A stretch of DNA of 64,000 bases from an uncultured archaeon (GTDB lineage: Archaea > Thermoproteota > Nitrososphaeria > Nitrososphaerales > Gagatemarchaeaceae), in NCBI GenBank assembly GCA_963799775.1, contig CAWCYD010000003.1, positions 608,001-672,000 of the forward strand, in the 5' to 3' direction. Shown here piece by piece: positions 5,536 through 57,800 of the stretch; within the stretch, counting starts at the first letter, position 1, and each line of letters begins with the position of its first letter. The notes beneath the pieces were generated by a model, which saw only the letters and a program-made list of their open reading frames with translations, made no database searches and was not told the origin of the DNA. Made by a program: the position numbers and the translations under genes.

Positions 5536-5831
5536 TCCAGCGCCGAACTAGTTGTGGACGCGATTAGAACGGGTGTCGTGCAACATCCCTGCAATCGTCC
5601 TAGGACTGTGTCTGTAACACACCACGTTGCAGCCCACTTTCGCATTACGCTAGGCAGATGAGAGTGTTGAGCGCGCGGTCCTCCCCTGACTCTTTCTGGA
5701 GAGATAGCGGAAACCCCGCGAGGGTTGCGCAGAGATTCGGGCTCCGCAAGTGTTCACTTTCCCCATCATGGGGCACAATCTGGGGAGAATCCATATATAA
5801 TGGGGAATATCCCAAAATACGGGGAATAGTC

Positions 5832-6077: not shown

Positions 6078-6082
6078 AGTGG

Positions 6083-21205: not shown

Positions 21206-21208
21206 GGC

Positions 21209-35198: not shown

Positions 35199-35277
35199 TC
35201 GAAGCATCGAAGCTCGAAACGAATCAAAGCTAGTTGTGCTTAAGTGGTATCTTGGGAATGTAGCACTTGGCATCAGT

Positions 35278-35538
35278 ATGACTGAAGAAGTCGTGGTAAC
35301 ACGCAAAGGCCAGACGACGGTTCCGGTGAGATTCAGGAAGAAGTACGGAATCCAGGAGGGGACGAAGCTACAGGTCGAAGACACTGGCAAGGGGATATTA
35401 TTCAAGAAGACGACGAGCACACTCGAACTGATCGGCTCCGGGTCCAAGTACGCTTCCGTCGAGGAGATGAAGAAACTCCTGGACGAGATGAGGGCCGAAG
35501 AAGAGCGAAAGGCACCTCATACGATACGAGATTCCTGA
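35278..35538 (+). CDS. AbrB/MazE-family antitoxin
   Basis: VTRKGQTTVPVRFRKKYGIQEG. Confidence 0.9.
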   Translation: MTEEVVVTRKGQTTVPVRFRKKYGIQEGTKLQVEDTGKGILFKKTTSTLELIGSGSKYASVEEMKKLLDEMRAEEERKAPHTIRDS

Positions 35539-35894
35539 TCGAACTGTGTTACGCCAGCGAGCTCGCAATCAAGGAGAAGATCAAGAACGTGCTGTTGGTC
35601 TCAGAGCCGAACTATCTTTCGACCGCCGCCCTATCCGAGATCTACAAGCTGACCTTGGAAAAGGAGGGCAAGGACGTGGCGGAGATCAGGGCGACTTCCC
35701 TGGCCAAGGACTTCAAACTGGTCGATGTCGACAAGGAGATATCAGTTCAGGCTGCGCTCATCAAGCACAAACACGAAATCCCCTTCGCAGACAGTCTGAT
35801 CGCCTCCACGGCCAGAGTCCTAAGGATTCCATGCTACACACATGACGCTCACTTTCACGGGATAGACGGAGTCACTTCGAAATGGCTCAGGTAG
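35505..35894 (+). CDS. vapC: VapC PIN toxin (start codon apparently mutated to GCG)
   Basis: SYDTRFLI...ALSEI...IPFADSLIA...YTHDAHF in frame from 35505. Confidence 0.8.
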   Translation, partial: AKGTSYDTRFLIELCYASELAIKEKIKNVLLVSEPNYLSTAALSEIYKLTLEKEGKDVAEIRATSLAKDFKLVDVDKEISVQAALIKHKHEIPFADSLIASTARVLRIPCYTHDAHFHGIDGVTSKWLR

Positions 35895-37345: not shown

Positions 37346-38538
37346 GGCTCTGCCATATCTACCGGACCTCATGTAGACCTGGCTTCGAGGATTCAGCTCG
37401 GAGGATTGGAGCAATCGTCGTCTCGTTCCCCTTCACAGCTTCATCTGTGCCTCGCGCTCCTGAGTGAGCCTGACCCAGACATCTTATCTTGCCGCGACGC
37501 TCGATGTTGATTGCAGAATTCGGGTCGCGTTCGAGCGTGGCACCACAATGAGGGCATGGCCAGCTCCTATCGGTGACTTTCAACTTGTGATTGATGTAGC
37601 CACAAAGATGACATGTCTTTGAGGTGTAGGCAGCAGGGACGTACTCGATTGGTACGCCAGCCCATTTGGCCTTGTAGTCGATGTATGATTGCAATTGCCT
37701 GAAAGGCCAGAGAGCAATCCTGCGTCTGGACGCCTTTCCCTCTCCGTTCCGCTTTCCGTGGGCGTACCTGATTCCCTTCAGTTTCTCGAGGACGATCGCT
37801 TCGTTGTTGGCCCTGGCCTTCTCGACTATCAGCGTCGAGACCCTGTGCAACTCTTGGCTGACCCGCTCCTTTTCTCTCCTTGATGACGCGAACTTCTTCT
37901 TGAGACGCCTGTCATTGGGATGTCTCTCGTAGAACCCGGAGCGCCTGACCCCGTAGAGCGTGTGCAGCCTGGCTACCTCTGAGAGGTCGTGCGAGTGTCC
38001 CGTCGCTCCCGACGATCGATTTCTCGTTGAGGTCATACCCGACCCGCGTTGCTGGATCTGACACCGGCATCTCTTTCGAGAAGGCAATGACAATCGAAGT
38101 CTCCGTTATTGTTACGGACCCGCGCTTCAGGGTCGCGTCCATCAGGAACGAGCGCTGGTAGTCGCCGTATTGCAACGGGATCAGGATTCGGCCTCCACCC
38201 TTCTTTGACGGTAGTGAAAGTACGGAGTAATTGAGCTTGTAGTTAGCAGAATCCATCTTGAACATCAAGCGCTTGGCGTATGGTCTTCGATGCCAACGCC
38301 TATGCTTCTTCACAATCGACCACGCTATTTCCGCAATCGAGTATGGAAGGCAGGACAAGACGCAGTACCTTTCTTGGAACTCCTTGTAGATCCTATCCCT
38401 GAGCCTCAATCGTCCCCTAATGTTCTCGTCAAGACAGATCCGGATGGCATCGTTGACCATATGTCTGAATGTGGTGAGGAGTTCAAGCGTCTGGGGAGTG
38501 GGATTGTATGCGAACTTGACTCCCTTGACGACCTTCAC
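37346..38538 (-). mobile_element. tnpB: IS200/IS605-family TnpB-only (IS1341-like) element; tnpB frameshifted near 37995
   Basis: RuvC motifs GYDLN, IVLEKL, ERDPNSAINI, zinc finger CHLC..CPHC, no tnpA adjacent. Confidence 0.88.
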
Positions 38539-38596
38539 ACACTATCCTGTCAGTTGCCCATATAAGCACCCACGCCGCACCGTAGAACCCGAAAAT

Positions 38597-38836
38597 ATGG
38601 GCGAGTCCCGAAGGATTCACAGAGGCATGATAAACATCCCAGCCAACATACGGAGGAAGTACGGCTTCAAGGAAGGGGATAAGGTGGTCTTCGTTGAGAC
38701 GGAACACGGGCTGATGCTGATACGTGTGCCCCCTCTGAAAGAGCTCTTCGGAATGGGACGGGACTATAAGGAGAAGCTGATCCAGATGGTCAGAGAGCTC
38801 GAAAAGGAGCACCGTGCGGAAGCGGCAAAAGGATGA
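38597..38836 (+). CDS. AbrB/MazE-family antitoxin
   Basis: RGMINIPANIRRKYGFKEGDKV. Confidence 0.9.
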   Translation: MGESRRIHRGMINIPANIRRKYGFKEGDKVVFVETEHGLMLIRVPPLKELFGMGRDYKEKLIQMVRELEKEHRAEAAKG

Positions 38837-39246
38837 ACCCTTCGATCGTGTTCGATACCGGCGCCCTCACCCTGTTCTGCGCCGAAGATGAGAGGTTGCG
38901 CGAGTTGGTCGACAAGTCGGACGAGCAGGGCGCGACCCAGTTCGTCTCAGCCGTCACAATCGGAGAGTTCTACTACAAGACATGCCAAACTCTGGGCCGC
39001 GAGACCGCAAGCGTCTGGTCAAAGCAAATCAGTGAAAGGATGGAAATCGTCAGCGTGGATGCAGACACGTCTCTTTCTGCAGGGCTCGAGAAATGCAGAA
39101 ACAACAGACTCTCGCTCGCCGATTGCTACGCTCTGACACTAGCAAAGCAAGTTAGAGGGCTGCTTCTAACCACAGACAGCGAACTGGCCAAAAGCAAGGA
39201 AACTTCCGTGAGGCTTTTCCAGGTGGGTGCGTCGTCGAAAGTCTAG
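38833..39246 (+). CDS. vapC: VapC PIN toxin
   Basis: IVFDTGAL, VTIGEFY, LSLADC, LLTTDSEL, ATGA overlap with the antitoxin. Confidence 0.9.
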   Translation: MNPSIVFDTGALTLFCAEDERLRELVDKSDEQGATQFVSAVTIGEFYYKTCQTLGRETASVWSKQISERMEIVSVDADTSLSAGLEKCRNNRLSLADCYALTLAKQVRGLLLTTDSELAKSKETSVRLFQVGASSKV

Positions 39247-41786: not shown

Positions 41787-44700
41787 CTACGAAAGAGACT
41801 TCGACATGTCCCTTCTCATCCTCATCAAGACAAGGATCGACGCGGAACCCGCTCCGGCGACGGCCGCGACCATGACGAAGAGCGAGATGATGCTCAGCGC
41901 CACTCGGCCGACAGGGATTGTCGCGCCAGAGGCCGCGTCTCCGTCGATGTGGGCGGTAGACCCCAAGCTTGTCACTTTCGCAGAATAGGTCCCGAGAGGT
42001 ATCATGGCCACGGAGAAGATCCCGTTGCTCTTGGTCACGCCGTTGATTGTGGTGCCGTTGGCGAGAGACATCGCGACGTGGGCCCCTGCCACAGGCAGCC
42101 CGAAGAGGTCGACCACCTTGAGGGAGGCGCTATACACTCGCGTCTCCAGTGTGATGTTGAGCGGCGCTCCCTTCACGACGAAGGAGGGCGAGCCCGCAGG
42201 CCCGACGCCGACTCCTTCCCAAACCACCGAGGAGACCGAGAAAGCCGTCCCGTTCGGGAACCACGCCGAGGAACCTTGGATCTCCGTTGTCGAGTTGCCT
42301 ATGGTTAGGTCGACGACGCTCGGTGTGACGGCGTTCCGTCCAACGCTGTCGAAGAACTGGAAGTTGACCAGATACTGCGTGTTCGCAGTGAATGCGAGTG
42401 TCACGGGGCCCGTGAAGGTCACGGAGGGCGTCGTGAAAGTGGAGGAGCTGGCGGAAGCTTGAACGGGGACTGGCGTTGCCCCGTTGATTGAATACGAAGA
42501 CAGGGTCTCAATCGTCCCTTGGCCCGAAGTGGCATTCCATTGGCGGGGGACCGTGAACGTCTCCTTCGAGCCGGAGTCGAAGTAGGAGTCCTGGGTCGGG
42601 GACGGAGGGATCGCAGAGACCTGCTGCGGGCCCGAGGTCGAGAGGAGGTATTGTGTCACGGAAGTTATCGCTATGGTGTGCGCCCCAGTCATGGACAGGC
42701 TGATCAGGAAGGTGCTGTTTCCAGGGCGCGTCAGGGTTGTCTTCGCGCCCCCGTCAATCGTGTAGCTCGTCGCGCTCTGCCTCGAGCCCGTCGAGTTGGT
42801 CGCCCAGGTCGAATCGAAGACAGCCTTGACGGCGACGCCGGAGTCATACCACCCTGGCAGATCTCCGGGGATGGTGGAGTTGGTGACCGATATCCACGGG
42901 ACCGGATTGGAGCTGAGGTGATACTGCGGGCCGGTCTTGGTCGTTATCGCTTCAGGCGCCGATATCCCGGACAGGCTGAGAGCTTGGACGGTGGAGGTGC
43001 TGAAGACGGTCGTCGTCTTCAGGCTGACCGTGTACGACACCAGCCTGCTCCCTGCGCTTGCAGTCCTTCCCCATACTCCGTTCAAGACGACCGAGACCGG
43101 CGTTCCGCTGTCATACCAATACTTGTCACCTGCAATCGCGGGAGGCGTGATCGAGGAGAGCGAGGCGATCCCTCCGCTGTCGAGGGTCAGCTGGTATTGC
43201 GTGACCACGTCGCCTGAGATCGACTCGGGCGATGTGATCTGCGCAAGATTGAGCGCGTTCACCAGACCGGACGAACCCACAGCGACGGGTGCCCCGCCGC
43301 TGATGGAGTAGGAGGCCAGCCTGTCTCCTGTGCCCGAGGCCCTGCTCCAGACGCTGTTCAGCACGACGCCCACAGGCGTCCCAGAGTCGTACCAGCCGGA
43401 GTCCAAGGGTATGCTGGGGCTCGTTATCGTTGATAGGGCGCTCGTCGTCGCCTTGTCGAGGGTCACCTGGTACTGGACGACGCTGGTGGTGTTGATGAGT
43501 TGAGGGGCAGTCATCGCCCCCGTCCTGATTGTCAACTGGTTCGTCTGGGCGATCTTTGTGACAGGCCCGCCGTCGAGCTGCCACGAAGCGGTCCGGTCGC
43601 CCGTCCCCGCGGAACGAGAATAGATCCCGTTGAGCACGACGCTCACGGCGGGGGATCCGGCATCATACCAGAAGGTGTCTCCCTGGAATGTGGACGGAGG
43701 TGAGACCGAGGCGAACGCACCAGCCGCTGCCGGGTTCAGCACCACCTCGTACTGCGTGGCGCTAGTTGTGGTGATGGAGATGGGGGTCTGGATTAGTGGA
43801 TTGGAGTAAGCTTGGATGGTCCCTGTGGTGTTGACGTGAAGGGTGGGCTGACCTGTTGCCGAGATGGATGTCAGTCGATGCCCGGTGCCGCCCGCTCTTC
43901 CCCAAGCTCCGTTGAGGGCGATCTGGACGGGTGAACCTGTGTCATACCAGTAGTTGTCTCCAGGGATGGTGGGCGGAGTGATGGAGCTGAGGCCCCCGCT
44001 CGCTCCCGCGTCGAGGCTTACCTGGAACTGGGTCACTGACTTGAAGGTGATGGTGTGGGGCCCTTCCATCGAGATGTAGAGGGTCAGCGTGGATAGGGGC
44101 TGAGACAGCGTCACGGGGCTCTTGGAGTCGATGGTGTAGGAAGTCACTCTGTATCCCGTCCCTTGTGACCTTCCCCAGACGCCCGGCGTGTTGAGGGTCG
44201 TGTTCGTGCCTGCGCTGACCCACTGCGTGGGGAGCGTCGCGCCTACGATGGTGAGGAGGTATTGCTGGTCGTAAGCGACGTCCACGATGTTGTTGGGGGC
44301 AGGGCCGATTATGGTCCCTGTCGCGGCGGGCGCGAACCACCTCTCAGTGCTTCCTGAGCTGGCGAGGATGCTCGTTGTGGAATACGTTGTCTGAGCGTCA
44401 GCCCAGAACATCTGCTCGCTTGTGGTGAGCGTCAACTGCTGGACGCTTCCCGCGAACATGTAGCTGAGGTTCGGCTGTGTCGACGACGGTGGAGCTTGCA
44501 GGCCCACGATGGAGAACGCGAACCCTTCGAGATACTGATGGAAGTAGACTGGGCTGATTTTGGTGGCCTGCGTTATCGTTCCCGTGGTCGAGTTGTTCAG
44601 CTCCCATCTCTCGCTGCTGTTCGTGCTGATGCAGCAGATATCAGCCGGCAGAGTGTAGGTCGAGCCGCCGTCGACCCAGACCGCCTCGTTCGCAGACGTC

Positions 44701-45737
44701 GAAGCCTTTGAGCCGAATTGCTGGTAGTTGAAGGGCGGCAGCGTCAAGCCCGTGGTGCTCCCTCCGTTGAACGTGAATGTGACGTTCACAAGGAACTGCT
44801 GGTAGTAGACCGGGGTGACCGGTATCGGGCCGGTCACCGTCCCGTTGTTGTCCATCGAGAGCGCCGTCCCCGTCTGCGCGGGCACCAAGACGGTCCCAAC
44901 CCACTTCTGATTGGTCACACTCACGGGCGTGATAACGGAGGTCCACGAATAGGATGCCCCCGCATCGAACCAGACGTTCTGAGTGCTCGGGCTCAGAGTG
45001 ATGCCCGTGTTCGAGCCGAATGCCATGCTGTCGATGACCGGGGCTGCCGGCGGTCCGCCCCCCACGACAGAGTAGCTCGTTGCGACCAGGTATTGGTGCC
45101 AATAGGTCGAGGTGATGCTCGTGGGAGCCGAGATCGTGCCGCTTCCACCCGAGGGGAGTATCCATCTCTCGTTGGTGGAGGTTCCAGGGAGCTCACCGCT
45201 GTAAGAGTAGGGGGAAGAGGCATCCACCCAGACCGGGCTGGCTCCCGCGGGCGATGAGGTGCCCGATCCCATCTCGTCATAGCTGACGGACGGCGGTGAG
45301 TATCCTGACCCTCCTTTCGTGATGTTGAAGTTGAACGTCACCAGGTACTGATGGTAATAGCTGAAGCTGATCGTCAGAGGCGTCGTGATGACGCCCGAGA
45401 CGTCCTGACTGGTCGTCCACCTCTCCTTGCTCGAGGAGCCGTTGAGGACGGTCAGGGCGCTCCATTGCGTCCCCGAATCCACCAGGTAGCCTGTGGGCGT
45501 CGAGGTCAGGGGGACGACCACGGTCGCTCCGCCGCTTACGTATTGCAACAGGTCTTGAGTGCCGCTGGAGCCGCCGCCGATGACCGAGTAACTCGCGGTG
45601 AGGGTGACCTGCGACGTGGCGTGCGCAGGGACCGCAGAGGGCCCGGCGATGAAGGAGAACGCTAGAAATGCGACGGTTGCGAGTGACAGAACCCCCAAGA
45701 CTGAGCGAATCCTCAATTTCCGGCCCTCACCACTCAT
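41787..45737 (-). CDS. Large surface protein (1316 aa) with tandem QY-type beta repeats and C-terminal TM anchor
   Basis: Signal peptide, more than ten repeats of W.DSG...ERW...QY.V, C-terminal TM. Confidence 0.85.
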   Translation of the reverse strand: MSGEGRKLRIRSVLGVLSLATVAFLAFSFIAGPSAVPAHATSQVTLTASYSVIGGGSSGTQDLLQYVSGGATVVVPLTSTPTGYLVDSGTQWSALTVLNGSSSKERWTTSQDVSGVITTPLTISFSYYHQYLVTFNFNITKGGSGYSPPSVSYDEMGSGTSSPAGASPVWVDASSPYSYSGELPGTSTNERWILPSGGSGTISAPTSITSTYWHQYLVATSYSVVGGGPPAAPVIDSMAFGSNTGITLSPSTQNVWFDAGASYSWTSVITPVSVTNQKWVGTVLVPAQTGTALSMDNNGTVTGPIPVTPVYYQQFLVNVTFTFNGGSTTGLTLPPFNYQQFGSKASTSANEAVWVDGGSTYTLPADICCISTNSSERWELNNSTTGTITQATKISPVYFHQYLEGFAFSIVGLQAPPSSTQPNLSYMFAGSVQQLTLTTSEQMFWADAQTTYSTTSILASSGSTERWFAPAATGTIIGPAPNNIVDVAYDQQYLLTIVGATLPTQWVSAGTNTTLNTPGVWGRSQGTGYRVTSYTIDSKSPVTLSQPLSTLTLYISMEGPHTITFKSVTQFQVSLDAGASGGLSSITPPTIPGDNYWYDTGSPVQIALNGAWGRAGGTGHRLTSISATGQPTLHVNTTGTIQAYSNPLIQTPISITTTSATQYEVVLNPAAAGAFASVSPPSTFQGDTFWYDAGSPAVSVVLNGIYSRSAGTGDRTASWQLDGGPVTKIAQTNQLTIRTGAMTAPQLINTTSVVQYQVTLDKATTSALSTITSPSIPLDSGWYDSGTPVGVVLNSVWSRASGTGDRLASYSISGGAPVAVGSSGLVNALNLAQITSPESISGDVVTQYQLTLDSGGIASLSSITPPAIAGDKYWYDSGTPVSVVLNGVWGRTASAGSRLVSYTVSLKTTTVFSTSTVQALSLSGISAPEAITTKTGPQYHLSSNPVPWISVTNSTIPGDLPGWYDSGVAVKAVFDSTWATNSTGSRQSATSYTIDGGAKTTLTRPGNSTFLISLSMTGAHTIAITSVTQYLLSTSGPQQVSAIPPSPTQDSYFDSGSKETFTVPRQWNATSGQGTIETLSSYSINGATPVPVQASASSSTFTTPSVTFTGPVTLAFTANTQYLVNFQFFDSVGRNAVTPSVVDLTIGNSTTEIQGSSAWFPNGTAFSVSSVVWEGVGVGPAGSPSFVVKGAPLNITLETRVYSASLKVVDLFGLPVAGAHVAMSLANGTTINGVTKSNGIFSVAMIPLGTYSAKVTSLGSTAHIDGDAASGATIPVGRVALSIISLFVMVAAVAGAGSASILVLMRMRRDMSKSLS

Positions 45738-45890
45738 CCGACGTTCTTTATGCCCTCGCCTCTCGAGACCAAGCTCGACGAGAAGAGAGACGGGATTAGG
45801 GCGATCTGGCCGCTGAGCGCCGCTTTTCTGGCCGCCCCCGATCTCGCCTGCATAGGGTAGTTTAGCGTCAAGGCCTCAAATATTTAGAAA

Positions 45891-46772
45891 GTGTATGCGG
45901 GATTCATATTACTTTTATCGCCCGAGAGGCGGTTTTCACGCGTTATTCTCATGCGCCCTCGGGTGTTGAATCTCGCTGCTCCTTCAAGCGAAGACACCTA
46001 CGAGCTTCTGCTCAACGTAAAATCAAAGATAGGCGTGCTCCATGAGATAACGGGGTTCCTTGCGAAGTCCAAGATAGACATACTCTCCATGCACATCCAA
46101 GCGGCACGAGGAAAGACGGCGGTCATCGTCGCGTACCTTGAGATGGAGGAGTCCAAGACCAACGTCCAGAAGCTCTTGCGAGACCTCCGGGACCTTGATT
46201 TCGTCATCGAGGCAGAGGCCGTGAAGAAGGACGGGCTCATGTTCGAGGAATTCCTATTCCCGATCTTGGTAGACGACGAAGTACGAGGATTCCTGATGAC
46301 GGACAGCGCCTGGATGTCCATAGCGTCCAGGATGGTCCTCACCTACGGAACGGGAGGGCTGGCGATCCTCTACGAGGCAGGGTTGGCGTGCGGCGAGGAA
46401 TACGCCCGGCACCTCCACGCCAAGTTGGGGCTCAACGCGAGCGCAAAGGCGGCCATCGAGAACCTCGGCGCCATGCTGAGGGCAGTGGGGATGGGCGTCA
46501 CAGAGATGAACGCGACCACCGACGGGTTCCTCGTGAAGGTCACGCAACCGGTAATCCCGGCGACGGAGACCAAATTCCACGACCGATTCCTGGCGGGCCT
46601 CATCGCCGGCGCGGCGGGGAGGTTGATGGCCACTAGCTACTCGGTGGAGAACGTAAAGTTCGAGGGAGACGAGCTGAGTTTCAAGCTCAGCCAGCGCGCT
46701 CCTGAGAACCGGACAAACGAAGCCAGAGCCAGAGGTCCTGAGAGCTCGATCAAGAGCGTCCGAGTGCCCTAG
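45891..46772 (+). CDS. ACT + V4R-like sensor protein
   Basis: VKSKIGVLHEITGFLAKSKIDILS (ACT), then ILYEAG..G.EYA...GMG...FLAGLIAG. Start may be 45951. Confidence 0.75.
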   Translation: MYAGFILLLSPERRFSRVILMRPRVLNLAAPSSEDTYELLLNVKSKIGVLHEITGFLAKSKIDILSMHIQAARGKTAVIVAYLEMEESKTNVQKLLRDLRDLDFVIEAEAVKKDGLMFEEFLFPILVDDEVRGFLMTDSAWMSIASRMVLTYGTGGLAILYEAGLACGEEYARHLHAKLGLNASAKAAIENLGAMLRAVGMGVTEMNATTDGFLVKVTQPVIPATETKFHDRFLAGLIAGAAGRLMATSYSVENVKFEGDELSFKLSQRAPENRTNEARARGPESSIKSVRVP

Positions 46773-48149
46773 GCCTGCTTCTTGACGTGCAGGCCGCCCG
46801 AATCGTAGCTAAAGTTGGCCGAGTAGAGGTTCCTGACCACGTTGATCGTCTTGTCATCGTGGGCCTTTGAGAGGACTATGGAGACGAAGACGACGTCGCC
46901 GCGGCTCACTATCTCGTTCATCTGTCTAAGGAACTTGTAGGTCTCCTGGAACCCTCCGTCGAGGATCATCGACGAGATGTTGTCGAAGACGATCGCCTTC
47001 GGCTTTTCCGGGGACTCGGTGACCGCCTCGTCCATCACGTTCAGCAGCACCGAGTGGTCGTTTCGGGGGACAAGGACCTCGAGCGGCGTGCCAGACGCCT
47101 TTGGATAGGAGACGTCGGCGAAGACGAAGAAGCGCACCCCTGGGGCCTCGTGAACCAAGAGATAGACGGGGCTTCCCTTGGAGGTGAGGACGAAGACGGT
47201 GCGCCCTTTGGCCAGCATGTCCTGCCCAAAGTCCCTGATCGCGCGCTCGTAGTTGGAGGAAGGGTCGGCCTCCAGGAGCGTGGACCCCTTGTATTCTACC
47301 ACGCTACCTCGCGCTCCGGGTTCCCTATTAATATCCGATGGGGTCATGGTGGCCGAATTCGCGGAATCCGTCGGCTTGAAGAGATCCTCGAGGACGGAGC
47401 CCCGTCTCATGGCTATCCCTATGCTCGCCAGGAGGAGGCCGACGATCACCTGGCCGGGTGCTATCGCGTCGACGGAGACCGTGGGAAGGTAGCCCAGGAT
47501 CATCAGGCCCACGAACGCTATCAGTGTCCCAGCCCCCCGAGATCAGCGTCACGGCCCTTCTCGTGGAGCTGTCGCGTATCGCCCTGATGCCTATCACGTA
47601 CTCGGTGGTCGGGAACACGAGGAAGATGAGGAACGCCACCTCTGCGAGGCCGAGGAACGAGCTGTCCAGTCTCGGAAGGAGGTCTTGTGCGCCCGTAAAG
47701 TCGTGGAGGGTGGCGATCGTGAAAGGCTGCTTCACCACCAATAGGACGTCCAGAGCGAGCAGGTAGGCCACGAACAGGAGGAGGCCGAGGCCGTAAGGAA
47801 AGAAGCGCTTTGTGACGAGGGCCACCACCCTCTCTTGGAACGTCGGCTCCGGAGGCCGACAGCAGATGACGTAGGCCAGGCTCGTCAGCAGGATCCCTAT
47901 CCAGAGGATCAGGCTGATCGTCCCGACCGTGTAGAACTCCATGTAACCCGGGACCGAAGAGAAGATGCCGCGCAGGAACTCGAGGAGGAAGATCACCAGG
48001 ATGAAGACGTGAGCGAAGACGAGGATCCACTTCGCGTCGTAGAGCCTGGATATCTTCTGCCTGAGGACGAACCGGAGCGCCACCGACCCTGCCGCGAACT
48101 CAAAGATCGCGAAGAGGACGACCAGAGAGACGGGTAGCGAGCTCGTCAA
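46769..48149 (-). CDS. Multi-pass membrane sensor fused to an inactive KaiC-like (DUF835-like) domain; frameshift near 47535
   Basis: About 7-8 TM segments, then TLLEADPSSNYE...IVFDNISSMIL...TYKFL. Break lies in a C7 run. Confidence 0.7.
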
Positions 48150-48193
48150 AGTTCTCTATTTTTCTCTCACTGCGTCCGCGTTGGCAACCGATA

Positions 48194-48970
48194 TCAATCT
48201 TCCACGCCTGCGACCTGAGGGCTCCTACCGCCCTCCGCAGACAGCACCGACATGACCATGAGGATGCCGCCGAGACAGATCCCTATCCTCCCAACCCAGA
48301 ACACGACTGCGTCGAATTGCCAATCAGACAAGAGAAGGGCGAAGAGGCCCACCGCGATCGTCGCCAAGGACCAGGAATACCAATACAGGATTGAGGAGGT
48401 CGACCTGAGCCCTATGAGGACCGCCGCCAGTCCGAAGATGGCGATCGCGCCGCCGAGCACGGTCTTAGCCGCCGAAGTCGCCCCCGCCCCGGGGTTGAGG
48501 AATCTTGGGAGCACTCCTTGTCCGGCGGCCAATACTATAGCGCCGACGAGGAGCACTGACAGGGCCATGACCCCGAGAGCCGCTAGGCCCGAACCTCTGC
48601 GTTCACTTTGGTGAAAGAACCTGGAAGCCGCGCACGAGAGATGCAGGACCGCTGAGCAGACCGCGGCCAGGATGAAGACCAAGGTGGAGATGTTCGAACC
48701 AGAGTTCCCTGCGAGCAATGCTGCGACCAGCGCTGCGACGCCGAAGACCAGGGAGCCCGACCCCAAGAAGAGCATGCTCGGGAGACCTTCCTTGACGTAG
48801 GCTCTCACCGACACATAGGAGACTATCACTGAACCCGAGGTGATGAAGACTATCGTCAAGACCGGGAAGACAGGGACGGGCAGGGGAGAGGCGGTGAGCT
48901 TCGCCTCATAACTCAAGACGGTGAGAACGACGAGAATCGCCGCTCCGACAGCGCCTTGAAGCCTGGCCAC
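48194..48970 (-). CDS. Stand-alone multi-pass membrane sensor-like protein (MASE-type)
   Basis: About eight TM segments resembling N-terminal sensor modules of kinases, no cytoplasmic domain. Confidence 0.55.
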   Translation of the reverse strand: MARLQGAVGAAILVVLTVLSYEAKLTASPLPVPVFPVLTIVFITSGSVIVSYVSVRAYVKEGLPSMLFLGSGSLVFGVAALVAALLAGNSGSNISTLVFILAAVCSAVLHLSCAASRFFHQSERRGSGLAALGVMALSVLLVGAIVLAAGQGVLPRFLNPGAGATSAAKTVLGGAIAIFGLAAVLIGLRSTSSILYWYSWSLATIAVGLFALLLSDWQFDAVVFWVGRIGICLGGILMVMSVLSAEGGRSPQVAGVED

Positions 48971-48979
48971 TACTCAGCT

Positions 48980-49489
48980 TCACTTTTTGAAGGCGGCTGC
49001 GAATCTTTGCGAAGTGAGCTCGATGGAGGCCTCCAGTTGCCGATTATGGTGTGAGACCAATTCTGACCTGTGCGCGCCGTCGCTCGGCAACGTCGCGAGT
49101 TCGACGAACCTCTTCAAGATCTTCTTCTCGTTCGACGTCACTGAGTGGTTCGGTGCTCCGGCGAGCGCCACGAGGCCCGACCAGCGGTGATGAGGTCTAT
49201 CCTTCCCTACTTGGTCTGCCGTGTTACGAAGCAGTATCCTCGCTATCTCGCATTCGATTATGTGCGCGCCCCTCTCTTGGAATATCTCAGTCATCGCTTG
49301 GTGGAACCTCAAAGGATCGGCCGCGAGACTGGGAAGGGGGTGGAGGCTGAGTAGCATCTGAAGCCCGCTCTCTCCCACGACCTGGCGCAGGCCCTCGGTC
49401 ACGCTCTGCTCTAGGACTACCTGGAAATCTGGCGCGCCGCTTTTCTTTCGCACTCCGGGCTCCAAATCGAGGTCTTTTGCCGGTTGCAT
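48980..49489 (-). CDS. NitrOD5/DUF3227-like small signalling protein
   Basis: EGLRQVVGESG...P.RFHQAMTEIF..GAHIIE.EI pattern. Confidence 0.55.
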   Translation of the reverse strand: MQPAKDLDLEPGVRKKSGAPDFQVVLEQSVTEGLRQVVGESGLQMLLSLHPLPSLAADPLRFHQAMTEIFQERGAHIIECEIARILLRNTADQVGKDRPHHRWSGLVALAGAPNHSVTSNEKKILKRFVELATLPSDGAHRSELVSHHNRQLEASIELTSQRFAAAFKK

Positions 49490-49652
49490 CAGGAATCTAT
49501 ATAGGGATTATGAATTTGGTAATACACCGCGGTCCAGGCGAGCTCCAACTTGCAATAATTGTAGTCTGCTCCCTGTAGTTCATCGGACCTATCTGGAATA
49601 GTAACGTGGTCCTGCATATTCCGATAATACACGAACGGCCGCTGAAGCAGAC

Positions 49653-49886
49653 ATGAATTCTCTGTTTCTGCACAGGCTGGTCAAGGCGGCGCCGTTCGCA
49701 ATGACCGTCTTCGGCGTTCTCTTAATGGCCCACGGGGTTCATGGAGTCGTCCACAACGGGGATCCGGGAGGCAATGGCGGACCCAACATCCACGCCATCT
49801 CCAACGGAGACCCCGGCGGCAACGGTGGGCCCAACCTTGGCAGGATTTCTAACGGCGATCCGGGCGGAAACGGTGGACCTAACTAG
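49653..49886 (+). CDS. Putative secreted peptide precursor with three NGDPGGNGGPN cores
   Basis: Basic/hydrophobic leader and three 16-aa units whose 11-aa cores differ only at synonymous positions. Confidence 0.8.
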   Translation: MNSLFLHRLVKAAPFAMTVFGVLLMAHGVHGVVHNGDPGGNGGPNIHAISNGDPGGNGGPNLGRISNGDPGGNGGPN

Positions 49887-50986
49887 GTCCACCGTTGGGC
49901 CTTTATTCTCATCTTCTGAGGGAGGATCTTCTCCAGAGCTGACTTGGGCTCGAAGAACCATCCTTTCTCGTCATCGTAGTTCTCGTAGGGGATCGTGTAC
50001 CAGAAGCTCGTGGACAGGTCGAGCGTCCAGGCCGTCCATGTGCCCACTTGCGCGCTGAGATGCTGTGACAGGAACCTCATGGATTCCATGAGCGACCCAG
50101 CTGGGACAGCGCAATGCACCTGGTAGTAACCGTCTTTCCGGCCGGCTTCGAACCAGGAGAACGGGAAGTTGTTGAACAAGGTCCTGAGCGCCTCTAGATT
50201 CTTCTTCGTCAGGTTGTTGAACTCGTAGACGAGCCCTGCTGAGGTGCCTACGTCCTTCTTCGAGTCCGGGAGCCAGTGGACGTAGCTGGAGAGGGCCGTC
50301 GGAGATACGTGCTTCGCGTAATGCCAGCGCAACGTCCGCTCATTGATGCGGAGCTTCCTCGCTATCTCTGCGATGTTACGCCAAGAGTCCAGCTCGAGCT
50401 CCTTTATGATCAGGGTGTCGGTCGAGTCGATCTCTGGCGATGCGCTTGGTTCTTCCGCGCCCGATATCGCTGGCGGCTTCTCCGTCTGTTTTGCAATCTC
50501 GTCCCAGTCTATGGACCAAGCCCCTCGGCTGAAATCATAGAATCTGCTCTTGATCTCCGGGTGTCGAGACCACTCCAGCCTTTCTATCCGGGCCTCTGTC
50601 AGCACGCCTTCATGCACGAGCCTGTCCATGAACTTTCGGAACTCGTCGGTGACGGCGACAGGGACTGCGAAGAACGAAAGATAGCGAAGGTCTGCCGGGC
50701 TCTTCACCCAATAGGTCAGGAATGCGGAGGAAGAGAGGCTGTCGAGGATTGCCGGAGCGGAGTTCCTGGATTCCTCCGTGAACTTCATCACGACGAAATA
50801 GCGCTCGAGCCCCATGTAGTCGTAGTTCACGGGCGTCCTGATGTCCAGGCCCAGGGTAGGAAACCTCTTCTTCACCGTGTATCTTACGGTCTCTACCGGC
50901 ATCCCGCTCATCCGTGAGAGGAGCGAGATGTTCTGGATCCCGACTCTGTCGATTGCCTCAATCAGCTTTGTGATGTCCCGAGTCAT
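49883..50986 (-). CDS. Two-HTH transcriptional regulator (Lrp/AsnC-like duplicated architecture)
   Basis: N-terminal NISLLSRMSGMPVETVRY and internal IDSTDTLIIKELE...IAEIARKLRINERTLRWHY. Confidence 0.75.
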   Translation of the reverse strand: MTRDITKLIEAIDRVGIQNISLLSRMSGMPVETVRYTVKKRFPTLGLDIRTPVNYDYMGLERYFVVMKFTEESRNSAPAILDSLSSSAFLTYWVKSPADLRYLSFFAVPVAVTDEFRKFMDRLVHEGVLTEARIERLEWSRHPEIKSRFYDFSRGAWSIDWDEIAKQTEKPPAISGAEEPSASPEIDSTDTLIIKELELDSWRNIAEIARKLRINERTLRWHYAKHVSPTALSSYVHWLPDSKKDVGTSAGLVYEFNNLTKKNLEALRTLFNNFPFSWFEAGRKDGYYQVHCAVPAGSLMESMRFLSQHLSAQVGTWTAWTLDLSTSFWYTIPYENYDDEKGWFFEPKSALEKILPQKMRIKAQRWT

Positions 50987-51082
50987 CTGTCAGGACAAGC
51001 GCCTCCGCCTAATCCCTAATAAAGATAATAGATTTTGCGAAAATATATGAGGTCCAGAATCCTGTGAATGGTCGAAGCCCCG

Positions 51083-51742
51083 CTAGACCATTTCGGGAGG
51101 CTTCCAGGTCACCTTGAGCTCGCACTTGACGCCATTGACGGCCTCGCAAGCGAGCTCGTACGCTGTCGCCTCGACCGCGAGAAGGGTTGAGACCATGCCT
51201 TCGATGTAGCCCCGCACATACCAGCACCTGGGCTCCTCGTCGACCGTATTTCTCACCATAGGGGAGTTGTGCATCGATATCCTCGCTTCGTTATGGAGCA
51301 AATCAATCTCTTCGATCTTGATCGCGCCCCAACCTAGTTTGTTGTAGGTGTGCGCGAGCTGCGCTGCCAACTGGTCGATGCCCACCTCGTCCGCAAGGTT
51401 CGCGAACTTCTTGCCTTCCGTCTTTCCCACGGTCTTTCCTGCGTTATACCAGATGACGAAGGCTCCAGTTCCAAGGACGGAGACTTCGCTCTCATAGACG
51501 CGCCGCAGCGCTTCGCCAGAGATCAGGACCCAGTCCTCCCCTGATGAGGCCCGAAGTTCTCCCCGGGAAGCGTCGAGAGAAGGCATCACGTCTTCGTCCT
51601 TGACGTGCGGTCTGCCCTCCACGGAGTGGAAGGAGCGCTCAGAGACAATATTCGCTTTCTTTCCATTTCGGAAATTCCCGGCCCGCATCTTTCTGCAATA
51701 GAACGAGAATCTGAATTCAGCATCCACACGAAACCAGCACAA
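51083..51742 (-). CDS. V4R-domain protein
   Basis: WYNAGK..G, LGWG, PRCWYVRGYIEG, ELAC...KC. True start probably near 51586-51606. Confidence 0.8.
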   Translation of the reverse strand: MCWFRVDAEFRFSFYCRKMRAGNFRNGKKANIVSERSFHSVEGRPHVKDEDVMPSLDASRGELRASSGEDWVLISGEALRRVYESEVSVLGTGAFVIWYNAGKTVGKTEGKKFANLADEVGIDQLAAQLAHTYNKLGWGAIKIEEIDLLHNEARISMHNSPMVRNTVDEEPRCWYVRGYIEGMVSTLLAVEATAYELACEAVNGVKCELKVTWKPPEMV

Positions 51743-52018
51743 TTACTTTATGCATTTGCTGACAGCGCTTAAATTCCTAAAGTGCTAACCGAAAAGCTGG
51801 GTCAGAGAACGAAGAAAGAGATCATCTCGGTCTCGAAAGACAACGTCAGTCTACGTTTGGTGATAACGAGGAAAGACGACGTCTCGACTCCACGCGGAGA
51901 CGCAGCAAACAAGACTGCCCCGAAGCTGCAGAAGCCCATAATCATTCAACGCAAGTAGCAACCTCGCCGCCGCACGCAACTTTCTCCTCAGCCAACCGGC
52001 TTTGTCTTCTGGCGTCGC

Positions 52019-52492
52019 TTGATGAGTTTTCACTCTCGTAAAGACTTATGTAGCCTGTTGCCGTTTGCATGGGATGTCGTGGAAGGGTCAGTTAATTCGG
52101 TATCAATCCTCGATATCGACTCGCTAGTCCGAAAGTATAGGAGAGGAATGGTCAACTCTCTCCTGGAGTACCTGATCCTGAACTCGCTCGAAAAGAGCAA
52201 GATGTGCGGCTACGACATTATCAAGCTGCTGCACGAGAGATTCCACACGTTGCTCAGCCCCGGACAGGTCTACCCGGTGATCGATCATCTTGCGAGGCAG
52301 GGCCTCATCGAGAAGGAGAAGGAAGGGAGGTCCGTGATGCTCTCCGCGTCCCACCTCGGACAGTCATTGCTAAAGGCGTGGAGAGAGGAACTGCGTAGCA
52401 TCCAGATGGAAGTAGACAATCTTGGCGTCCAAAAGCCAGGATTGGGTCGCGGGAGTGAAGCGCTTCGTCTCGATCCCATCCTCGCGAGTTAG
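52019..52492 (+). CDS. PadR-family regulator
   Basis: LEYLILNSL...CGYDIIK...LSPGQVYP. Confidence 0.85.
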   Translation: MMSFHSRKDLCSLLPFAWDVVEGSVNSVSILDIDSLVRKYRRGMVNSLLEYLILNSLEKSKMCGYDIIKLLHERFHTLLSPGQVYPVIDHLARQGLIEKEKEGRSVMLSASHLGQSLLKAWREELRSIQMEVDNLGVQKPGLGRGSEALRLDPILAS

Positions 52493-52559
52493 TGTTTTCA
52501 CAAGAATCTATACGTTTATTAGTGTATAATCCCTTCCAAATGATTACAGGGTGTGGTAG

Positions 52560-52901
52560 TTGCCAACGACTTGGGCCGTAGCCAGGTTCAGGACGAACAT
52601 CATTCGGGAAAACCTCCAGTTGATGGTCTTGAGTTATTTGAGACAGTCTGAGCTATCCGAATGGGAAATCCTCAACCTGCTTCACTCCCGACACAATGCG
52701 ACGCCAGGAGAGAGAGAATTCCGGAAGCTGGTCGACTCCCTAACTCAGGGAGGCTATGCAGAGTCAGAGCTGGTCTCGGGAGACCGGAAATTGCGTCTGA
52801 GCCGAAAGGGGATGGACCTGCAGAGAACGCTCGCGAAGGAGTACAAGGCCGTGATGGCAAGGTTGAACGCCTTCTCTGCAGCTGAGTTCGCGAGAGGGTA
52901 G
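52560..52901 (+). CDS. PadR-like winged-helix protein
   Basis: LQLMVLSYL...SEWEIL...L...GY...LSRKG. Confidence 0.65.
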   Translation: MPTTWAVARFRTNIIRENLQLMVLSYLRQSELSEWEILNLLHSRHNATPGEREFRKLVDSLTQGGYAESELVSGDRKLRLSRKGMDLQRTLAKEYKAVMARLNAFSAAEFARG

Positions 52902-52908
52902 CGGCCCC

Positions 52909-53278
52909 TCAGGCTATCTTGTAGCGGTTCGCTGCCTTCACGATAAGGAATATCACAAAAGCCACGATTATGAAAGTGAGGACTGCATTGGCGAAGTCTC
53001 CGATCCCGAACCCGTCGACCGCGTAAGTGTTGATGTTTGTGCCTTTCGGAAGGGCTAGACCGACAATCGGGAGGATCAGGTCGCTGACGAGGGCCTTGAC
53101 CACGCCTCCCAGGTATAGGCCCAGGATGAACGCGACGGCGAGGCCTATGGACCTTGTACTCGGCTAGGAAGGCCTTGAACTCTTGCGCCATTCCCTTTGG
53201 TTTCGGAGGGTCGGGAGGCTTCTTGAGTGCATCTGAGATCTTGCGGAGCTCGGCAAGGATCTCGTCATCTTTGTCCAA
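52909..53278 (-). CDS. mscL: Large-conductance mechanosensitive channel (frameshift near 53150)
   Basis: EFKAFLAEYKV, then GLAVAFILG..VVKALVSDLILP...IGDFANAVLTFIIVAFVIF. Confidence 0.88.
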
Positions 53279-53415: not shown

Positions 53416-53730
53416 TCAGCGCATTATTTCCATTCGGTGAGTCGGATAGATGAGGCCCTCTGCGTTGGAGTTAGGCTCCATGAAGACCGATTCGACCTCT
53501 TGGAAGCGTTTCAACAGGGTGAGGCCGTCGGAAGTCGGGGTGACGACCACTCCGGATGGGGTGTCCTTGCTCTCGAGTATGCCCTTCTTCTCGAGCGAGT
53601 CTAGAGCGTCGTTCAGGACTGTCCAGGCTAGGTTCGCCTTGTACATGATCCTCGTCCGCTTCATCTCTCTTTCCTCGGCGACTACCTTCATGATGTCCAT
53701 GAAGACTTCCAACTTCGACCTTCGAATCAT
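53416..53730 (-). CDS. Winged-helix regulator (HTH_45-like)
   Basis: RRSKLEVFMDIM...TRIMYKANL. Confidence 0.85.
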   Translation of the reverse strand: MIRRSKLEVFMDIMKVVAEEREMKRTRIMYKANLAWTVLNDALDSLEKKGILESKDTPSGVVVTPTSDGLTLLKRFQEVESVFMEPNSNAEGLIYPTHRMEIMR

Positions 53731-54118: not shown

Positions 54119-54655
54119 TTGCAGGGTCTGTCCAAGAGGACGCTGGAGGGAGTCATAAGGACCGACCTCACATCTGCGAGGACTCTATACATGTCCGCCA
54201 ACTCTTGGCTTCAGATCGAAGACGACCTCTTCAGGACCTTCTCGACAGGCGCCTCGATGTTCTTGATCCACCTGGGGACATATTACGGCAAGTCGATTAC
54301 CAAGGAAGCGAAGCTCTCGTTCACAGACCCGCAAGGGATCTTGGACAGGCTCAAGGCCATGATGCTAATCGCTGGTTGGGGAGAGCTCTCGATTCGGTGG
54401 AGACAAGGCGATGAGAGGAACCTCGAGATGGAGTTGAAGAACTGCGTCTTCTGCTCAGAAGAGACGAAGGCCTTGTCTTGCTATTTCTTGCAGGGCGTGA
54501 TGGCGGGGGCGCTCTCGGAGACGTTCGGGCGGGAGTACAAGGTCTCTGAGACAGAGTGTTGCAGGAAGGGCGCGGACTCGTGCAAGCTCCACGCCACAGT
54601 GTCCGCAGTCCGAGAGACGGCAGGGATATTCTCTTCGTCCTCGGAGAGCAACTAG
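54119..54655 (+). CDS. V4R-domain protein
   Basis: AGWG, NCVFC, SCYFLQG, ETECCRKGADSC. Confidence 0.85.
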   Translation: MQGLSKRTLEGVIRTDLTSARTLYMSANSWLQIEDDLFRTFSTGASMFLIHLGTYYGKSITKEAKLSFTDPQGILDRLKAMMLIAGWGELSIRWRQGDERNLEMELKNCVFCSEETKALSCYFLQGVMAGALSETFGREYKVSETECCRKGADSCKLHATVSAVRETAGIFSSSSESN

Positions 54656-56560: not shown

Positions 56561-57800
56561 ATGTCTGTCGTTGCCATGCTCTCGGTTTGGCAGCCTCATG
56601 ATAACGGTGTCTTGACTGGAATTCTACGTGAATGCAGGATCCTGACATACAACGCAATCGAATATGCTGAAAACAACGGACTAAAGAGCAGGAAGCAGAT
56701 GAACGGGTTCTACCGGTCGATAAATAGTGTCAATCTACCATCCTGCTTCAAACTCGCAATAATTACGCGCGCCTGTTCTGTACTTAGGAGTAGGAGAAAG
56801 AGCGAAAACAAATCCGTCCAGGTGAAGTATCGAAAGCCTCTGAAGCTTATGGCCTGCATAACAGCTGGATTCTTCATTACCTCTAAGGGCAAGTTGTTCA
56901 TCTCGCTGGGTCATGATAAATTCGAGATGGTCCAACTCAACTGCTACGCCTTCGCCAAAGTCTCTGCGCCCAATATCAAAATGAGGAGCCTGACAATAAC
57001 AGAAGATAGGATTGGAATCTGCTACTCGAAACAGGTTGAAGCGATACATTGTCATCGAGTCTTCGGTGTCGATAGGAACGAGAAGAACCTCACTTTTGGC
57101 AATCGAGATGCATTCGAGACGATAGATCTGTCACAGATAGCGCGAGTGAATCAGACAACGAGAGAGATCCTGAGCTCCTTCAAAAGAAACGATGATAGAG
57201 TCAAGAGACGACTATTCGATAAGTACTGGGGACGGGCCAGTAGAAGAACGAATCAGGTGCTCCACGATGCGACTAACCGTATCGTTGAAAAAGCTAGATC
57301 TGAGGGTGCGGCGTTGGCCCTTGAGGACATCGCAGGAATCAACAAGATGTATCAGAAGGGCAACGGGCAAGGAAAAGACTATCGATTCAGGATGAATTCC
57401 TGGGCGCATGGAAAGACATGCAGGATGATCGATTACAAATCTGCCGACAAGGGCGTGACTGTTGTGAAGCTCACAAAAACAGAGACCAGAGGGTCTTCAT
57501 CGACTCATTTTGGGTGTGGGGAGAAGCTCCAAAGCCCAGCCAAGAGAGATCTGGTTCATCGGCGACACCTCTGGTGCAATAAATGCGAGCGTTGGGTTCA
57601 CCGCGACGTCAACGCGGTGTTCAATCTGGCTGACAGGGGGCTGTCCAGGCTTGCCAGTTCCCTGCCTCCTTCTGAGAAGATGGAGGTGAAAGGGCATGCA
57701 GGTGAAGCTATGAATGGGAATCCGACGACGATGGCAGTAATCCCAGGAGCAGATGCCATGCAAGTGGACTCTGGGTGCGAACCGAAGAGTTAACAGAGCC
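56561..57800 (+). mobile_element. tnpB: IS200/IS605-family TnpB-only element, tnpB ORF intact (56561-57793)
   Basis: RuvC motifs GVDRN, LALEDI, HRDVNA, zinc-finger-like HFGC..CNKC, visibly more AT-rich than flanks. Confidence 0.9.

Follow-up and report, generated by a model that had tools for sequence, protein, structure and literature searches.

RRNPP systems are defined, in the part of the source that deals with them, as a propeptide together with an adjacent intracellular receptor (PMC10075063). Among the SHP/Rgg systems, the group III shp genes lie downstream of rgg and are convergent with it, and a mature SHP is the C-terminal part of its precursor, beginning with a conserved Asp or Glu and often having a Gly-rich end (excerpts of PMC3679016). 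In the Rap-Phr systems, propeptides with several tandem copies of the putative mature pheromone are described (an excerpt of PMC11343458). For archaea, passages of a 2025 Haloferax study state that little is known of cell-to-cell signalling and that the signal found there is a protease-resistant small molecule other than a peptide (PMC12240190). Here, a pair of genes is described from a 64,000-nucleotide stretch of archaeal DNA, called the window throughout (positions 608001-672000 of contig C3 in genome G000, an assembly of 2.47 Mb in 3 contigs with 81.7% completeness). It consists of a gene for a 77-amino-acid (aa) propeptide (49653-49886, + strand) and a convergent gene for a 367-aa regulator with two helix-turn-helix (HTH) and RAM-like modules (49883-50986, - strand), the presumed cognate receptor.

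On sequence comparison, the peptide and the regulator form a conserved two-gene module that is order-wide, occurs in multiple paralogues and constitutes a family without annotation; this regulator-propeptide cassette is the solid and novel item of the locus. Its hosts are a group of soil archaea, with genomes assembled from acidic soil and peat. Our preferred reading, to which we give a probability of roughly 45%, is that the gene encodes a secreted, pheromone-like propeptide that acts on a cognate intracellular Lrp-type receptor in the manner of SHP/Rgg, with KaiC and inactivated KaiC-like (iKaiC) proteins as an optional side branch. The observations behind it are the pairing of the two genes, their co-diversification, the selection on the repeat units, the pattern of conserved leader and variable tail, the fold of the regulator and the upstream element. 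A first-pass annotation had read the same region as a possible complete peptide-sensing circuit with a membrane-sensor operon; its observation was largely right, and the complete-circuit reading only partly so.

The peptide gene and its pairing with the regulator

The stop codons of the peptide and regulator genes overlap by 4 nucleotides (nt) in the palindrome CTAG. Below, G numbers denote relative genomes, L numbers denote metagenome or genome loci, and A-type and B-type refer to close orthologue loci and to the sister clade, respectively. Orthologues of the regulator with 54-62% identity are present in nine close genomes, and a convergent peptide gene lies -4 to +42 nt from the regulator stop in 9/9 of them; it is also present in a genome of another family (G040), giving 10/10 genomes for the A-type. 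Fifteen metagenome loci were also fetched, of which some duplicate genome loci (e.g. L052 = G013) and one (L062) ends within the peptide; the convergent peptide gene was found in 14/14 loci that extend past it. In the sister clade, with a regulator identity of 44-46%, a related single-unit peptide accompanies 6/6 regulator copies (G001, G002, two in G007 and two in G014). Of the circuit in the first-pass annotation, the synteny in genomes, metagenome contigs and the sister clade bears out the peptide gene and the HTH regulator as a conserved pair.

Distant paralogue loci from several genera and families, with a regulator identity of 27-34%, have a gene of 39-49 aa located 6-36 nt after the regulator stop in 11 of the 20 loci sampled. 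These short genes share the pattern M-[TS]-[LT]-[ED]-[ED]-K-[VI]-R-x-G, followed by a hydrophobic stretch and then by GVH-x-SPL-[DE]-x-x-GG-x-G. The 40-aa peptide family has 483 members in public data, in which the first 31 positions are nearly invariant and the variation is concentrated in the last nine residues. G000 has a convergent peptide gene at three of its six regulator copies, its own pair counted, while in genus g1, both genes were found in 12 of 22 relatives and neither of them in the other 10. At the loci examined, the peptide was never seen apart from a regulator of this family; it was found neither in unrelated neighbourhoods nor without co-occurrence, either of which would have spoken against the pair. 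The regulator is the only gene conserved with the peptide, and the pairing outlasts the loss of every other neighbour. No immunity, export, modification or other enzyme gene is common to the peptide loci of the close genomes and the metagenome.

In trees of the regulator, the peptide types form coherent clades and the type of peptide tracks the clade of its regulator; the second tree, with 42 regulators, is a quick tree with midpoint rooting, from which no direction is read. Judged from these sequences, peptides and regulators have co-diversified. At one locus of a paralogous pair (L047), a CPBP/Rce1-like intramembrane protease of 413 aa (PF02517, E-value 2.4e-9, above the cut-off; G000:C3:690935-692173, which is L047:1767-3008 on the - strand) is encoded 155 nt upstream of the 42-aa peptide gene and on the same strand. 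It was seen at this one locus and is a candidate processing enzyme.

The 77-aa propeptide is composed of a conserved N-terminal leader, a hydrophobic segment that runs to AHG, and three 16-residue units, each with a terminal GDPGGNGGPN; NGDPGGNGGPN occurs three times in it. Across the family, the leader has the consensus MNSLLLxRLVKVAPFAM, the hydrophobic stretch again runs to AHG, and one to three units follow with a terminal GDP-x-G-x-x-x-P-[NDST]. The hydrophobic leader closes with a small-x-small motif. Orthologues are found at the same place in nine genomes, with two to three units in the open reading frames (ORFs) of G018, G008, G017, G011, G006 and G013 and a single degenerate unit each in G016 and G020. 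A profile search of 5.8 billion proteins yielded 52 family members of 44-80 aa, all of them named 'hypothetical' and none with a Pfam domain. There is a weak profile match in G340 (E-value 7e-4), and weak matches in G148 and G356, which lie inside frames of 804 and 479 aa, were dismissed as chance.

The repeats within one gene differ at 85 of 150 codons, counted over 15 unit pairs in seven genes, and all of these differences are synonymous, with 0 nonsynonymous changes. Tandem Repeats Finder detected no tandem repeat in the DNA of the peptide gene, so that the repetition exists in the protein only. Between species, the units vary at positions 4, 6-8 and 10, and the variants (NGG, SGG, PGA, PGE, NTG and others) are altered in all copies of a gene together. 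The extra units, such as L-H-x-I-x-N-G-D-P-G-G-N-T-G-P-N, copy the entire tail of 14-16 residues that follows ..HG in the single-unit forms. The pattern of codon changes indicates that the units are held identical by selection. Because the units differ synonymously only, lack a repeat at the DNA level, change jointly in each species and are amplified as whole tails, the ORF is more than a chance ORF and very probably encodes a functional product.

Two irregular forms were also observed. In G011, the peptide gene (locus L018, 10536-10742, - strand) stops early inside the would-be third unit (…LHGISDAV); the regulator, MscL-like and iKaiC genes of that genome are likewise interrupted by internal stops or splits, which suggests indel errors of the assembly rather than biology. 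In the metagenome loci L059 and L060, HGVSGL is repeated three times in the peptide, after the leader and ahead of the first unit, and the spacer region can therefore expand too.

A conserved block of 32 nt lies upstream of the peptide gene (49598-49629, + strand). It has the form TTAGTAAC-N8-CTG-[CA]-ATAGTGCG-[GC]-TAATA and ends ~24 nt before the ATG of the peptide, with a TATA-like 3' end (GATAATA). The block is conserved in 13/13 close loci and in 5/5 sister-clade loci tested, including loci without the divergent operon, and is absent upstream of the peptide gene of the distant paralogue in L047. A search of the G000 genome at up to 8 mismatches found it once only, at the present site. It is the presumed promoter and operator of the peptide gene. 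Conservation is also seen in another block, the TATA box that belongs to the divergent gene for a 169-aa protein; this gene probably starts in reality at the TTG near 49465.

Fold of the regulator and the proposed signalling role

The regulator family has six matches in G000 and up to 10 in relatives, 6-13 candidate paralogue loci per genome, and 322 representatives among 1.84 billion proteins. Pfam gives weak HTH matches for the window regulator, with HTH_AsnC-type at an E-value of 0.035, and one of its paralogues passes the HTH_AsnC-type cut-off at 33.9 bits. When the family profile was run against the PDB with hmmsearch, ST1022 (2efo, E-value 2e-11) and LrpA (1i1g, E-value 3e-10) were matched over positions 182-330, which comprise the C-terminal HTH and RAM. 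The N-terminal and C-terminal halves match each other in hhalign with a probability of 98.5% (E-value 2.3e-15, 160 columns). The AlphaFold 2 (AF2) model has a pLDDT of 94.4 and a pTM of 0.91. Its best whole-chain match in Foldseek is NirDL (4ch7; E-value 1.6e-10, TM score 0.51-0.58, 10-12% identity, root-mean-square deviation >10 Å), and single modules of it match Lrp/AsnC regulators at a TMt of 0.56-0.69.

The Lrp/AsnC order of an N-terminal HTH followed by a beta-alpha-beta-beta-alpha-beta RAM domain is found in both the profile and the model. The 367-aa protein is, by profile and predicted fold, a tandem Lrp/AsnC-like protein with a strongly diverged first module, and its family membership points to DNA binding and ligand binding. 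No TPR domain was found in it by profile against the PDB, Foldseek or Pfam, and no NirD-type Pfam family was among its matches. The predicted complex of the regulator with the full propeptide has a score of 0.01, in a run without controls from which we draw no conclusion.

In the mechanism that we propose, the peptide gene would be transcribed from its own conserved promoter/operator, and the leader and hydrophobic segment would insert the product into the membrane or take it across. A cut behind the conserved ..HG would free the tail, which here consists of three identical 16-residue units, each ending D-P-G-G-N-G-G-P-N. The freed peptide would accumulate outside the cell and then be re-imported; two Opp/Dpp-type binding-protein genes (SBP_bac_5) lie elsewhere in the G000 genome. 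The imported peptide would bind the RAM-like domains of the regulator, and the peptide-bound regulator would act on other targets as well as on the 32-nt element that precedes the peptide gene. Secretion, cleavage sites, uptake, binding and regulatory output are steps that we infer from sequence.

The likeness to SHP/Rgg lies in a tiny gene for a hydrophobic propeptide that sits immediately downstream of its regulator gene in convergent orientation, in several paralogous pairs per genome, and in the tail. Archaeal tails have an invariant or near-invariant acidic residue, Asp in this family, followed by 8-9 residues with invariant Gly and Pro, comparable to the acidic start of mature SHPs. Unlike Rgg, the receptor here is tandem Lrp/AsnC-like rather than HTH-XRE with TPR, the hosts are archaea, and the precursors are 39-80 aa long with a long conserved leader. 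RRNPP receptors have a TPR-type peptide-binding domain, together with an N-terminal HTH in Rgg, PlcR and PrgX, and their propeptides are secreted, matured and brought back in through an oligopeptide permease. The propeptide gene adjoins its receptor gene as in RRNPP systems, and it is on the receptor fold that RRNPP membership fails; on present sequence and model evidence, the resemblance is one of function and not of homology. Similar to Rap-Phr, the archaeal precursors have one to three units, but the copies are almost always identical, kept so by selection, and the receptor family is unrelated.

The regulator shares with the Lrp/AsnC (FFRP) family an HTH and a RAM-type ligand-binding module by profile and fold, while its two modules are fused in one chain of 360-400 aa. 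The known ligands of Lrp/AsnC proteins are amino acids and small metabolites, not peptides. NirDL/AhbAB siroheme decarboxylase is also a single chain of two Lrp/AsnC-like modules, a scaffold that can hold a large ligand, but at 10-12% identity the present regulator differs from it in having many paralogues per genome and a paired peptide gene. Two further classes of small exported protein were compared. A multi-core ribosomally synthesised and post-translationally modified peptide has modifying or processing enzymes encoded with its precursor, and no such enzyme gene is common to these loci. The class III signal peptide of archaeal type IV pilins has a short charged N-terminus and [KR]-[GA] directly before the hydrophobic segment, and is followed by a globular pilin body. 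By eye, the residues before the hydrophobic segment differ from this in the present peptides (VKAAPF, VQYAPF, RYGMM and NLYLWVP), which at 39-80 aa have no body domain.

Several points weigh against a pheromone with a cognate receptor. Peptide genes are missing at 9/20 sampled paralogue loci and at 3/6 copies in G000, and the regulator family can therefore work without a peptide. One archaeal order is the source of all loci, and a single genus in which gene order is conserved overall supplies most of the A-type ones, so that some of the synteny reflects shared descent. In G000, the upstream element was found at the peptide gene alone, so that it defines no regulon. The closest whole-chain match, NirDL, is an enzyme, so the scaffold can be enzymatic, and the regulator is a predicted DNA-binding protein only. 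Furthermore, the conservation of the leader, which extends to its short cytoplasmic N-terminus, is unusual in a signal peptide that is to be discarded and would equally fit a stable membrane micro-protein.

The last point leads to the strongest rival, which is unlikely in our judgement and is favoured by the unusual conservation of the leader. Here, the small protein would remain membrane-bound, as a micro-protein that spans the membrane once and points its Gly/Pro-rich tail outward, and would serve as a partner or modulator rather than as a diffusible signal; for example, it might tether and release the regulator through its cytoplasmic N-terminus or modulate a membrane sensor such as the transmembrane (TM) iKaiC protein. 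The leader and the hydrophobic segment are more conserved than the tail across genera and families, the hydrophobic stretch has the length needed for one TM helix, and the pairing with the regulator would be explained equally well. However, two to three identical copies of the whole tail under purifying selection, with species-specific changes in all copies, are more typical of released units, and most pairs are without a membrane sensor nearby.

Sensor genes, the KaiC link and the wider window

Divergent from the peptide gene, an operon on the - strand encodes the 169-aa soluble helical protein (48980-49489), a 258-aa all-transmembrane protein (TM258, 48194-48970) and a TM domain joined to an inactivated KaiC-like, DUF835-like domain (TM-iKaiC, 46769-48149). 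The ACT-domain protein gene (45891-46772, + strand) and a V4R-domain protein gene (51083-51742, - strand; Pfam V4R 37.3 bits, E-value 3e-9, above the cut-off of 31) flank this block as accessory neighbours. A 1316-aa surface (adhesin-like) repeat protein (41787-45737, - strand), whose CarboxypepD_reg match is sub-threshold only, adjoins the iKaiC gene. The gene positions in the first-pass annotation, the gaps of 9 and 44 nt in the divergent operon, the 4-nt overlap of the stops, the flanking V4R gene, and the nearby pilus and adhesin genes were all confirmed by the ORF listing, the sequence and Pfam.

The fusion of a TM protein to an inactive KaiC-like domain, also in that annotation, is real in relatives: it is intact as a single ORF of 456-460 aa in G018, G020 and L061. 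In the window, it is frameshifted into two overlapping ORFs (47328-48149 and 46769-47512). Residues 1-208 of the 460-aa protein of L061, the closest relative, correspond to 48149-47526 and residues 205-460 to 47536-46772 in a different frame, which places the switch at ~47526-47536. A frameshift in the G6 run at 47533-47538 was considered and rejected, as in the alignment to the intact relative the switch lies beyond the GGWD codons, some bases downstream. A true pseudogene and an assembly error are equally likely, because the genome is in three contigs and other split genes occur in similar assemblies.

PMC5847659 equates DUF835 with iKaiC and NitrOD5 with PF11537. The DUF835 (PF05763) matches of the window protein, an intact orthologue and a paralogue reach 21.8-23.2 bits against a cut-off of 33.1 (E-value 1.3e-4 at the present locus), and those to DUF7504 and DUF7090 are also below the cut-off. 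In the alignment, YKG-[ST]-[LM]-L-EADPSxNYE stands at the expected Walker A site, where no GxxxxGK[ST] is read. The N-terminal half of the intact forms is hydrophobic. iKaiC is, on this reading of the sequence, a KaiC/RecA-like core without a functional Walker A loop behind a membrane domain. Makarova et al. are said to have proposed in 2017 that KaiC and iKaiC form an archaeal signalling hub. The likeness of the present locus to such a network includes the membrane domain with a P-loop-less KaiC-like domain and the nearby KaiC, V4R, ACT and small helical adaptor-like proteins; it differs in that the DUF835 and NitrOD5 matches are below the curated cut-offs.

The 169-aa protein had been labelled NitrOD5/DUF3227-like, which did not hold at accepted thresholds. 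No PF11537 match was found in hmmscan at E-values up to 5, and the genome search gave 11.1 bits (E-value 0.8) at 49241-49321. Distant small paralogues reach 13-23 bits against a cut-off of 27, and a remote NitrOD5 relationship is possible on this basis. The AF2 model has a mean pLDDT of 62 and is confident at residues 20-93 only, as a helical hairpin. TM258 has no Pfam match at E-values up to 5, including the MASE3 and MASE4 models (PF17159 and PF17158). Its nearest clusters in the protein atlas, by language-model resemblance (score 0.96), have MASE3/MASE4 on 20-48% of their members, a lead only, and TM258 may be a sensor module of this kind. Duplication was considered for TM258 and the TM part of TM-iKaiC and rejected, since no similarity exists between them. 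For the protein given as ACT-V4R, the ACT half stood: it scores 24.6 bits in the window, and two of five orthologues of 45891-46772 pass the cut-off. The C-terminal half is weakly V4R-like, does not reach the V4R cut-off and matches the V4R gene at a BLASTP E-value of 0.002.

The sensor genes vary in their presence. In the close genomes, an iKaiC domain lies within ~2 kb at 9/9 loci, and the adhesin, an orthologue with 54-60% identity, is likewise present in 9/9 and absent from four sister-clade loci. The 169-aa and TM258 genes are found at 6/9 loci, as is the ACT protein, the TM part of iKaiC at 3/9, and a V4R gene beside the regulator at 2/9 (G000 and G020 only). Among the metagenome loci with enough upstream sequence, 10 of 12 have the 169-aa gene, while iKaiC adjoins the peptide in one and TM-iKaiC does so in one. 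In G008, the 169-aa and TM258 genes have been relocated together to a different contig, and TM258 was not found anywhere in G013 (82% complete) or G017 (95% complete) with this query. Four sister-clade loci, taken with 9 kb on either side, have none of the sensor genes and keep only the PadR pair that stands on the upstream side of the regulator (in the window, a PadR regulator at 52019-52492, + strand, Pfam PadR E-value 2.2e-9, and a 113-aa PadR-like protein at 52560-52901, + strand). This pair is present in 9/9 close and 4/4 sister-clade loci. The two 40-aa-type pairs of G000 are far from any iKaiC paralogue and have no sensor genes nearby. Since the 169-aa and TM258 genes are absent from the locus in 3/9 close genomes, and all sensor genes from the four sister-clade loci, while the peptide is intact, the comparison indicates that the sensor genes are accessory and that the 169-aa, TM258, TM-iKaiC, ACT and V4R genes stand outside the obligatory cassette.

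A link of the regulator family to KaiC recurs elsewhere. A clade of regulators without peptide lies ~3 kb from a TM-iKaiC paralogue in 7/8 loci, beside KaiC genes, and includes one genome of another family. In G000, such a block (C3:600392-607178, L083) comprises KaiC, a peptide-less tandem-Lrp regulator, polyprenyl synthase genes, KaiC and a 592-aa TM-iKaiC, and ends 1.2 kb before the window. The spacing of ~3 kb recurs in G011, G018, G009, G017, G030 and contig C1. Gene order across these genomes supports a recurrent link of the regulator family to KaiC/iKaiC genes, on which the peptide does not depend; the claimed link to iKaiC is kept in the close genomes and fails at the sister-clade and 40-aa-type pairs, none of which has iKaiC near it. 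A variable KaiC-network sensor module, kept near two regulator clades, may feed the same regulator. Contig C1 of G000 (27 kb, L090) repeats the regulator/TM-iKaiC block of C3:598-608 kb, and its regulator is nearly identical to that of G018 (branch 0.002 versus 0.03 in a quick tree), so C1 may be a strain variant or a mis-binned contig.

The distribution of the sensor genes bears directly on the circuit of the first-pass annotation, which we regard as more doubtful than the membrane micro-protein. In it, the secreted peptide would be sensed outside the cell by TM258 or TM-iKaiC and the signal passed to the iKaiC/KaiC network, with the 169-aa protein as adaptor, then to the regulator, with the pilus and adhesin genes as final targets. 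In its favour, the operon diverges from the peptide gene and has an intergenic region in common with it, the close genomes keep iKaiC nearby without exception, a second regulator clade is tied to KaiC/TM-iKaiC paralogues, TM258 resembles MASE-type sensor modules by protein-atlas features, and pilus and adhesin genes are near. However, the 169-aa/TM258 pair is missing from the locus in a third of the close genomes, which have an intact peptide there, with TM258 not found in G017 and G013, and the TM part of iKaiC is absent from most of them and frameshifted in G000. Moreover, 0/4 sister-clade pairs and neither 40-aa-type pair of G000 have sensor genes, and the regulator clade linked to TM-iKaiC elsewhere has no peptide. 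This pattern of presence and absence weakens outside sensing by TM258 or TM-iKaiC, which keeps a small probability in the genomes that have those genes, and the TM proteins as peptide receptors of a complete circuit are not borne out.

The wider window has a type IV pilus locus, made up of an intein-containing ATPase fused to T2SSF, another T2SSF, TackOD1 and a pilin, together with three large Ig-like/fn3 surface proteins, two KaiC genes, many PIN/MazE pairs and TnpB-like genes. In the pilus locus, a 1469-aa ORF (29098-33507, - strand) comprises a T2SSE/PilB-type ATPase, interrupted by a LAGLIDADG-containing intein, and a T2SSF membrane domain at its C-terminus, and the second T2SSF and TackOD1 follow. 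Five PIN-domain genes, each with a small gene of the MazE/RHH/MraZ type, lie at 5658-6503, 12075-12799, 20930-21757, 35236-35894 and 38420-39246, and TnpB-like (Cas12f1-like TNB) genes lie at 37359-38093 and 56561-57793. The surroundings of the pilus and adhesin genes look like an island rich in toxin-antitoxin and mobile genes.

On the other side of the cassette, a second V4R gene is located at 54119-54655 (44.9 bits; cut-off 31). A winged-helix protein of the HTH_45 type (104 aa; 53416-53730, - strand) has 86-95% identity in all close genomes, mostly above 90%, while its neighbours have 38-80%. A 64-aa ORF (52909-53103, - strand) matches the C-terminal part of MscL only (Pfam 40 bits, profile positions 30-97); it is kept at 71-81% identity in all close loci and may be a truncated or mini MscL-like membrane protein. 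An Rfam scan of 45000-53000 had no match at E-values up to 0.1. PF12942 (AmoA) had no match in the genome, and its control likewise matched nowhere, which makes this search uninformative.

Remaining alternatives and significance

It is improbable that the peptide is a secreted effector under the control of the regulator, such as an antimicrobial or competition factor or a metal- or surface-binding peptide, rather than a signal. A small, presumably exported peptide that varies by species and is present several times in one precursor would suit such a role, as would the protease gene just upstream of one paralogous peptide gene. CPBP/Rce1-like proteases are often found in bacteriocin loci. However, genes for immunity, export or modification do not accompany the pair in any conserved way, we judge the units, as uncharged 9-16-mers rich in Gly, Pro and Asn, to be unlike known antimicrobial peptides, and several paralogous pairs per genome with co-diversifying regulators fit signal-receptor pairs better. 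A meaningless adjacency or a small ORF that is not expressed, with synteny merely inherited in a young lineage, would agree with the origin of most A-type loci in one genus with gene order conserved from the adhesin to the HTH_45 gene, but it is very improbable and already disfavoured, as the two genes stay paired in several families where regulator identity is down to 27-34%, the pairing survives the loss of every other neighbour, the reading frame is under strong purifying selection and the promoter element is conserved.

In the full-text literature searched, with most subscription journals outside its scope, no paper was found on archaeal peptide pheromones, on peptide-linked Lrp regulators or on this pair, and a link of the iKaiC/KaiC network to a peptide gene was not found described either. 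With the pheromone and its cognate receptor as the preferred reading, we propose tentatively, and expecting it to fail sooner than to hold, that these genes represent the first archaeal family of ribosomally synthesised peptide pheromones. This family would consist of order-wide propeptide/tandem-Lrp cassettes in Nitrososphaerales-type archaea, several per genome and co-diversified, with some precursors amplified two- to threefold and some cassettes wired to KaiC/iKaiC near adhesin and pilus genes.

Whatever the function, the 52 and 483 cluster representatives in public data, ~530 small genes in all, gain a family and a context. If the proposal is true, the family would provide synthesisable candidate signals (9-16-mers) and a soluble, confidently folding candidate receptor, and the question would therefore be testable in vitro even though the organisms are uncultured. 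The Lrp/AsnC scaffold would have been co-opted to sense peptides, and archaea would have arrived independently at the logic of peptide signalling in Gram-positive bacteria.

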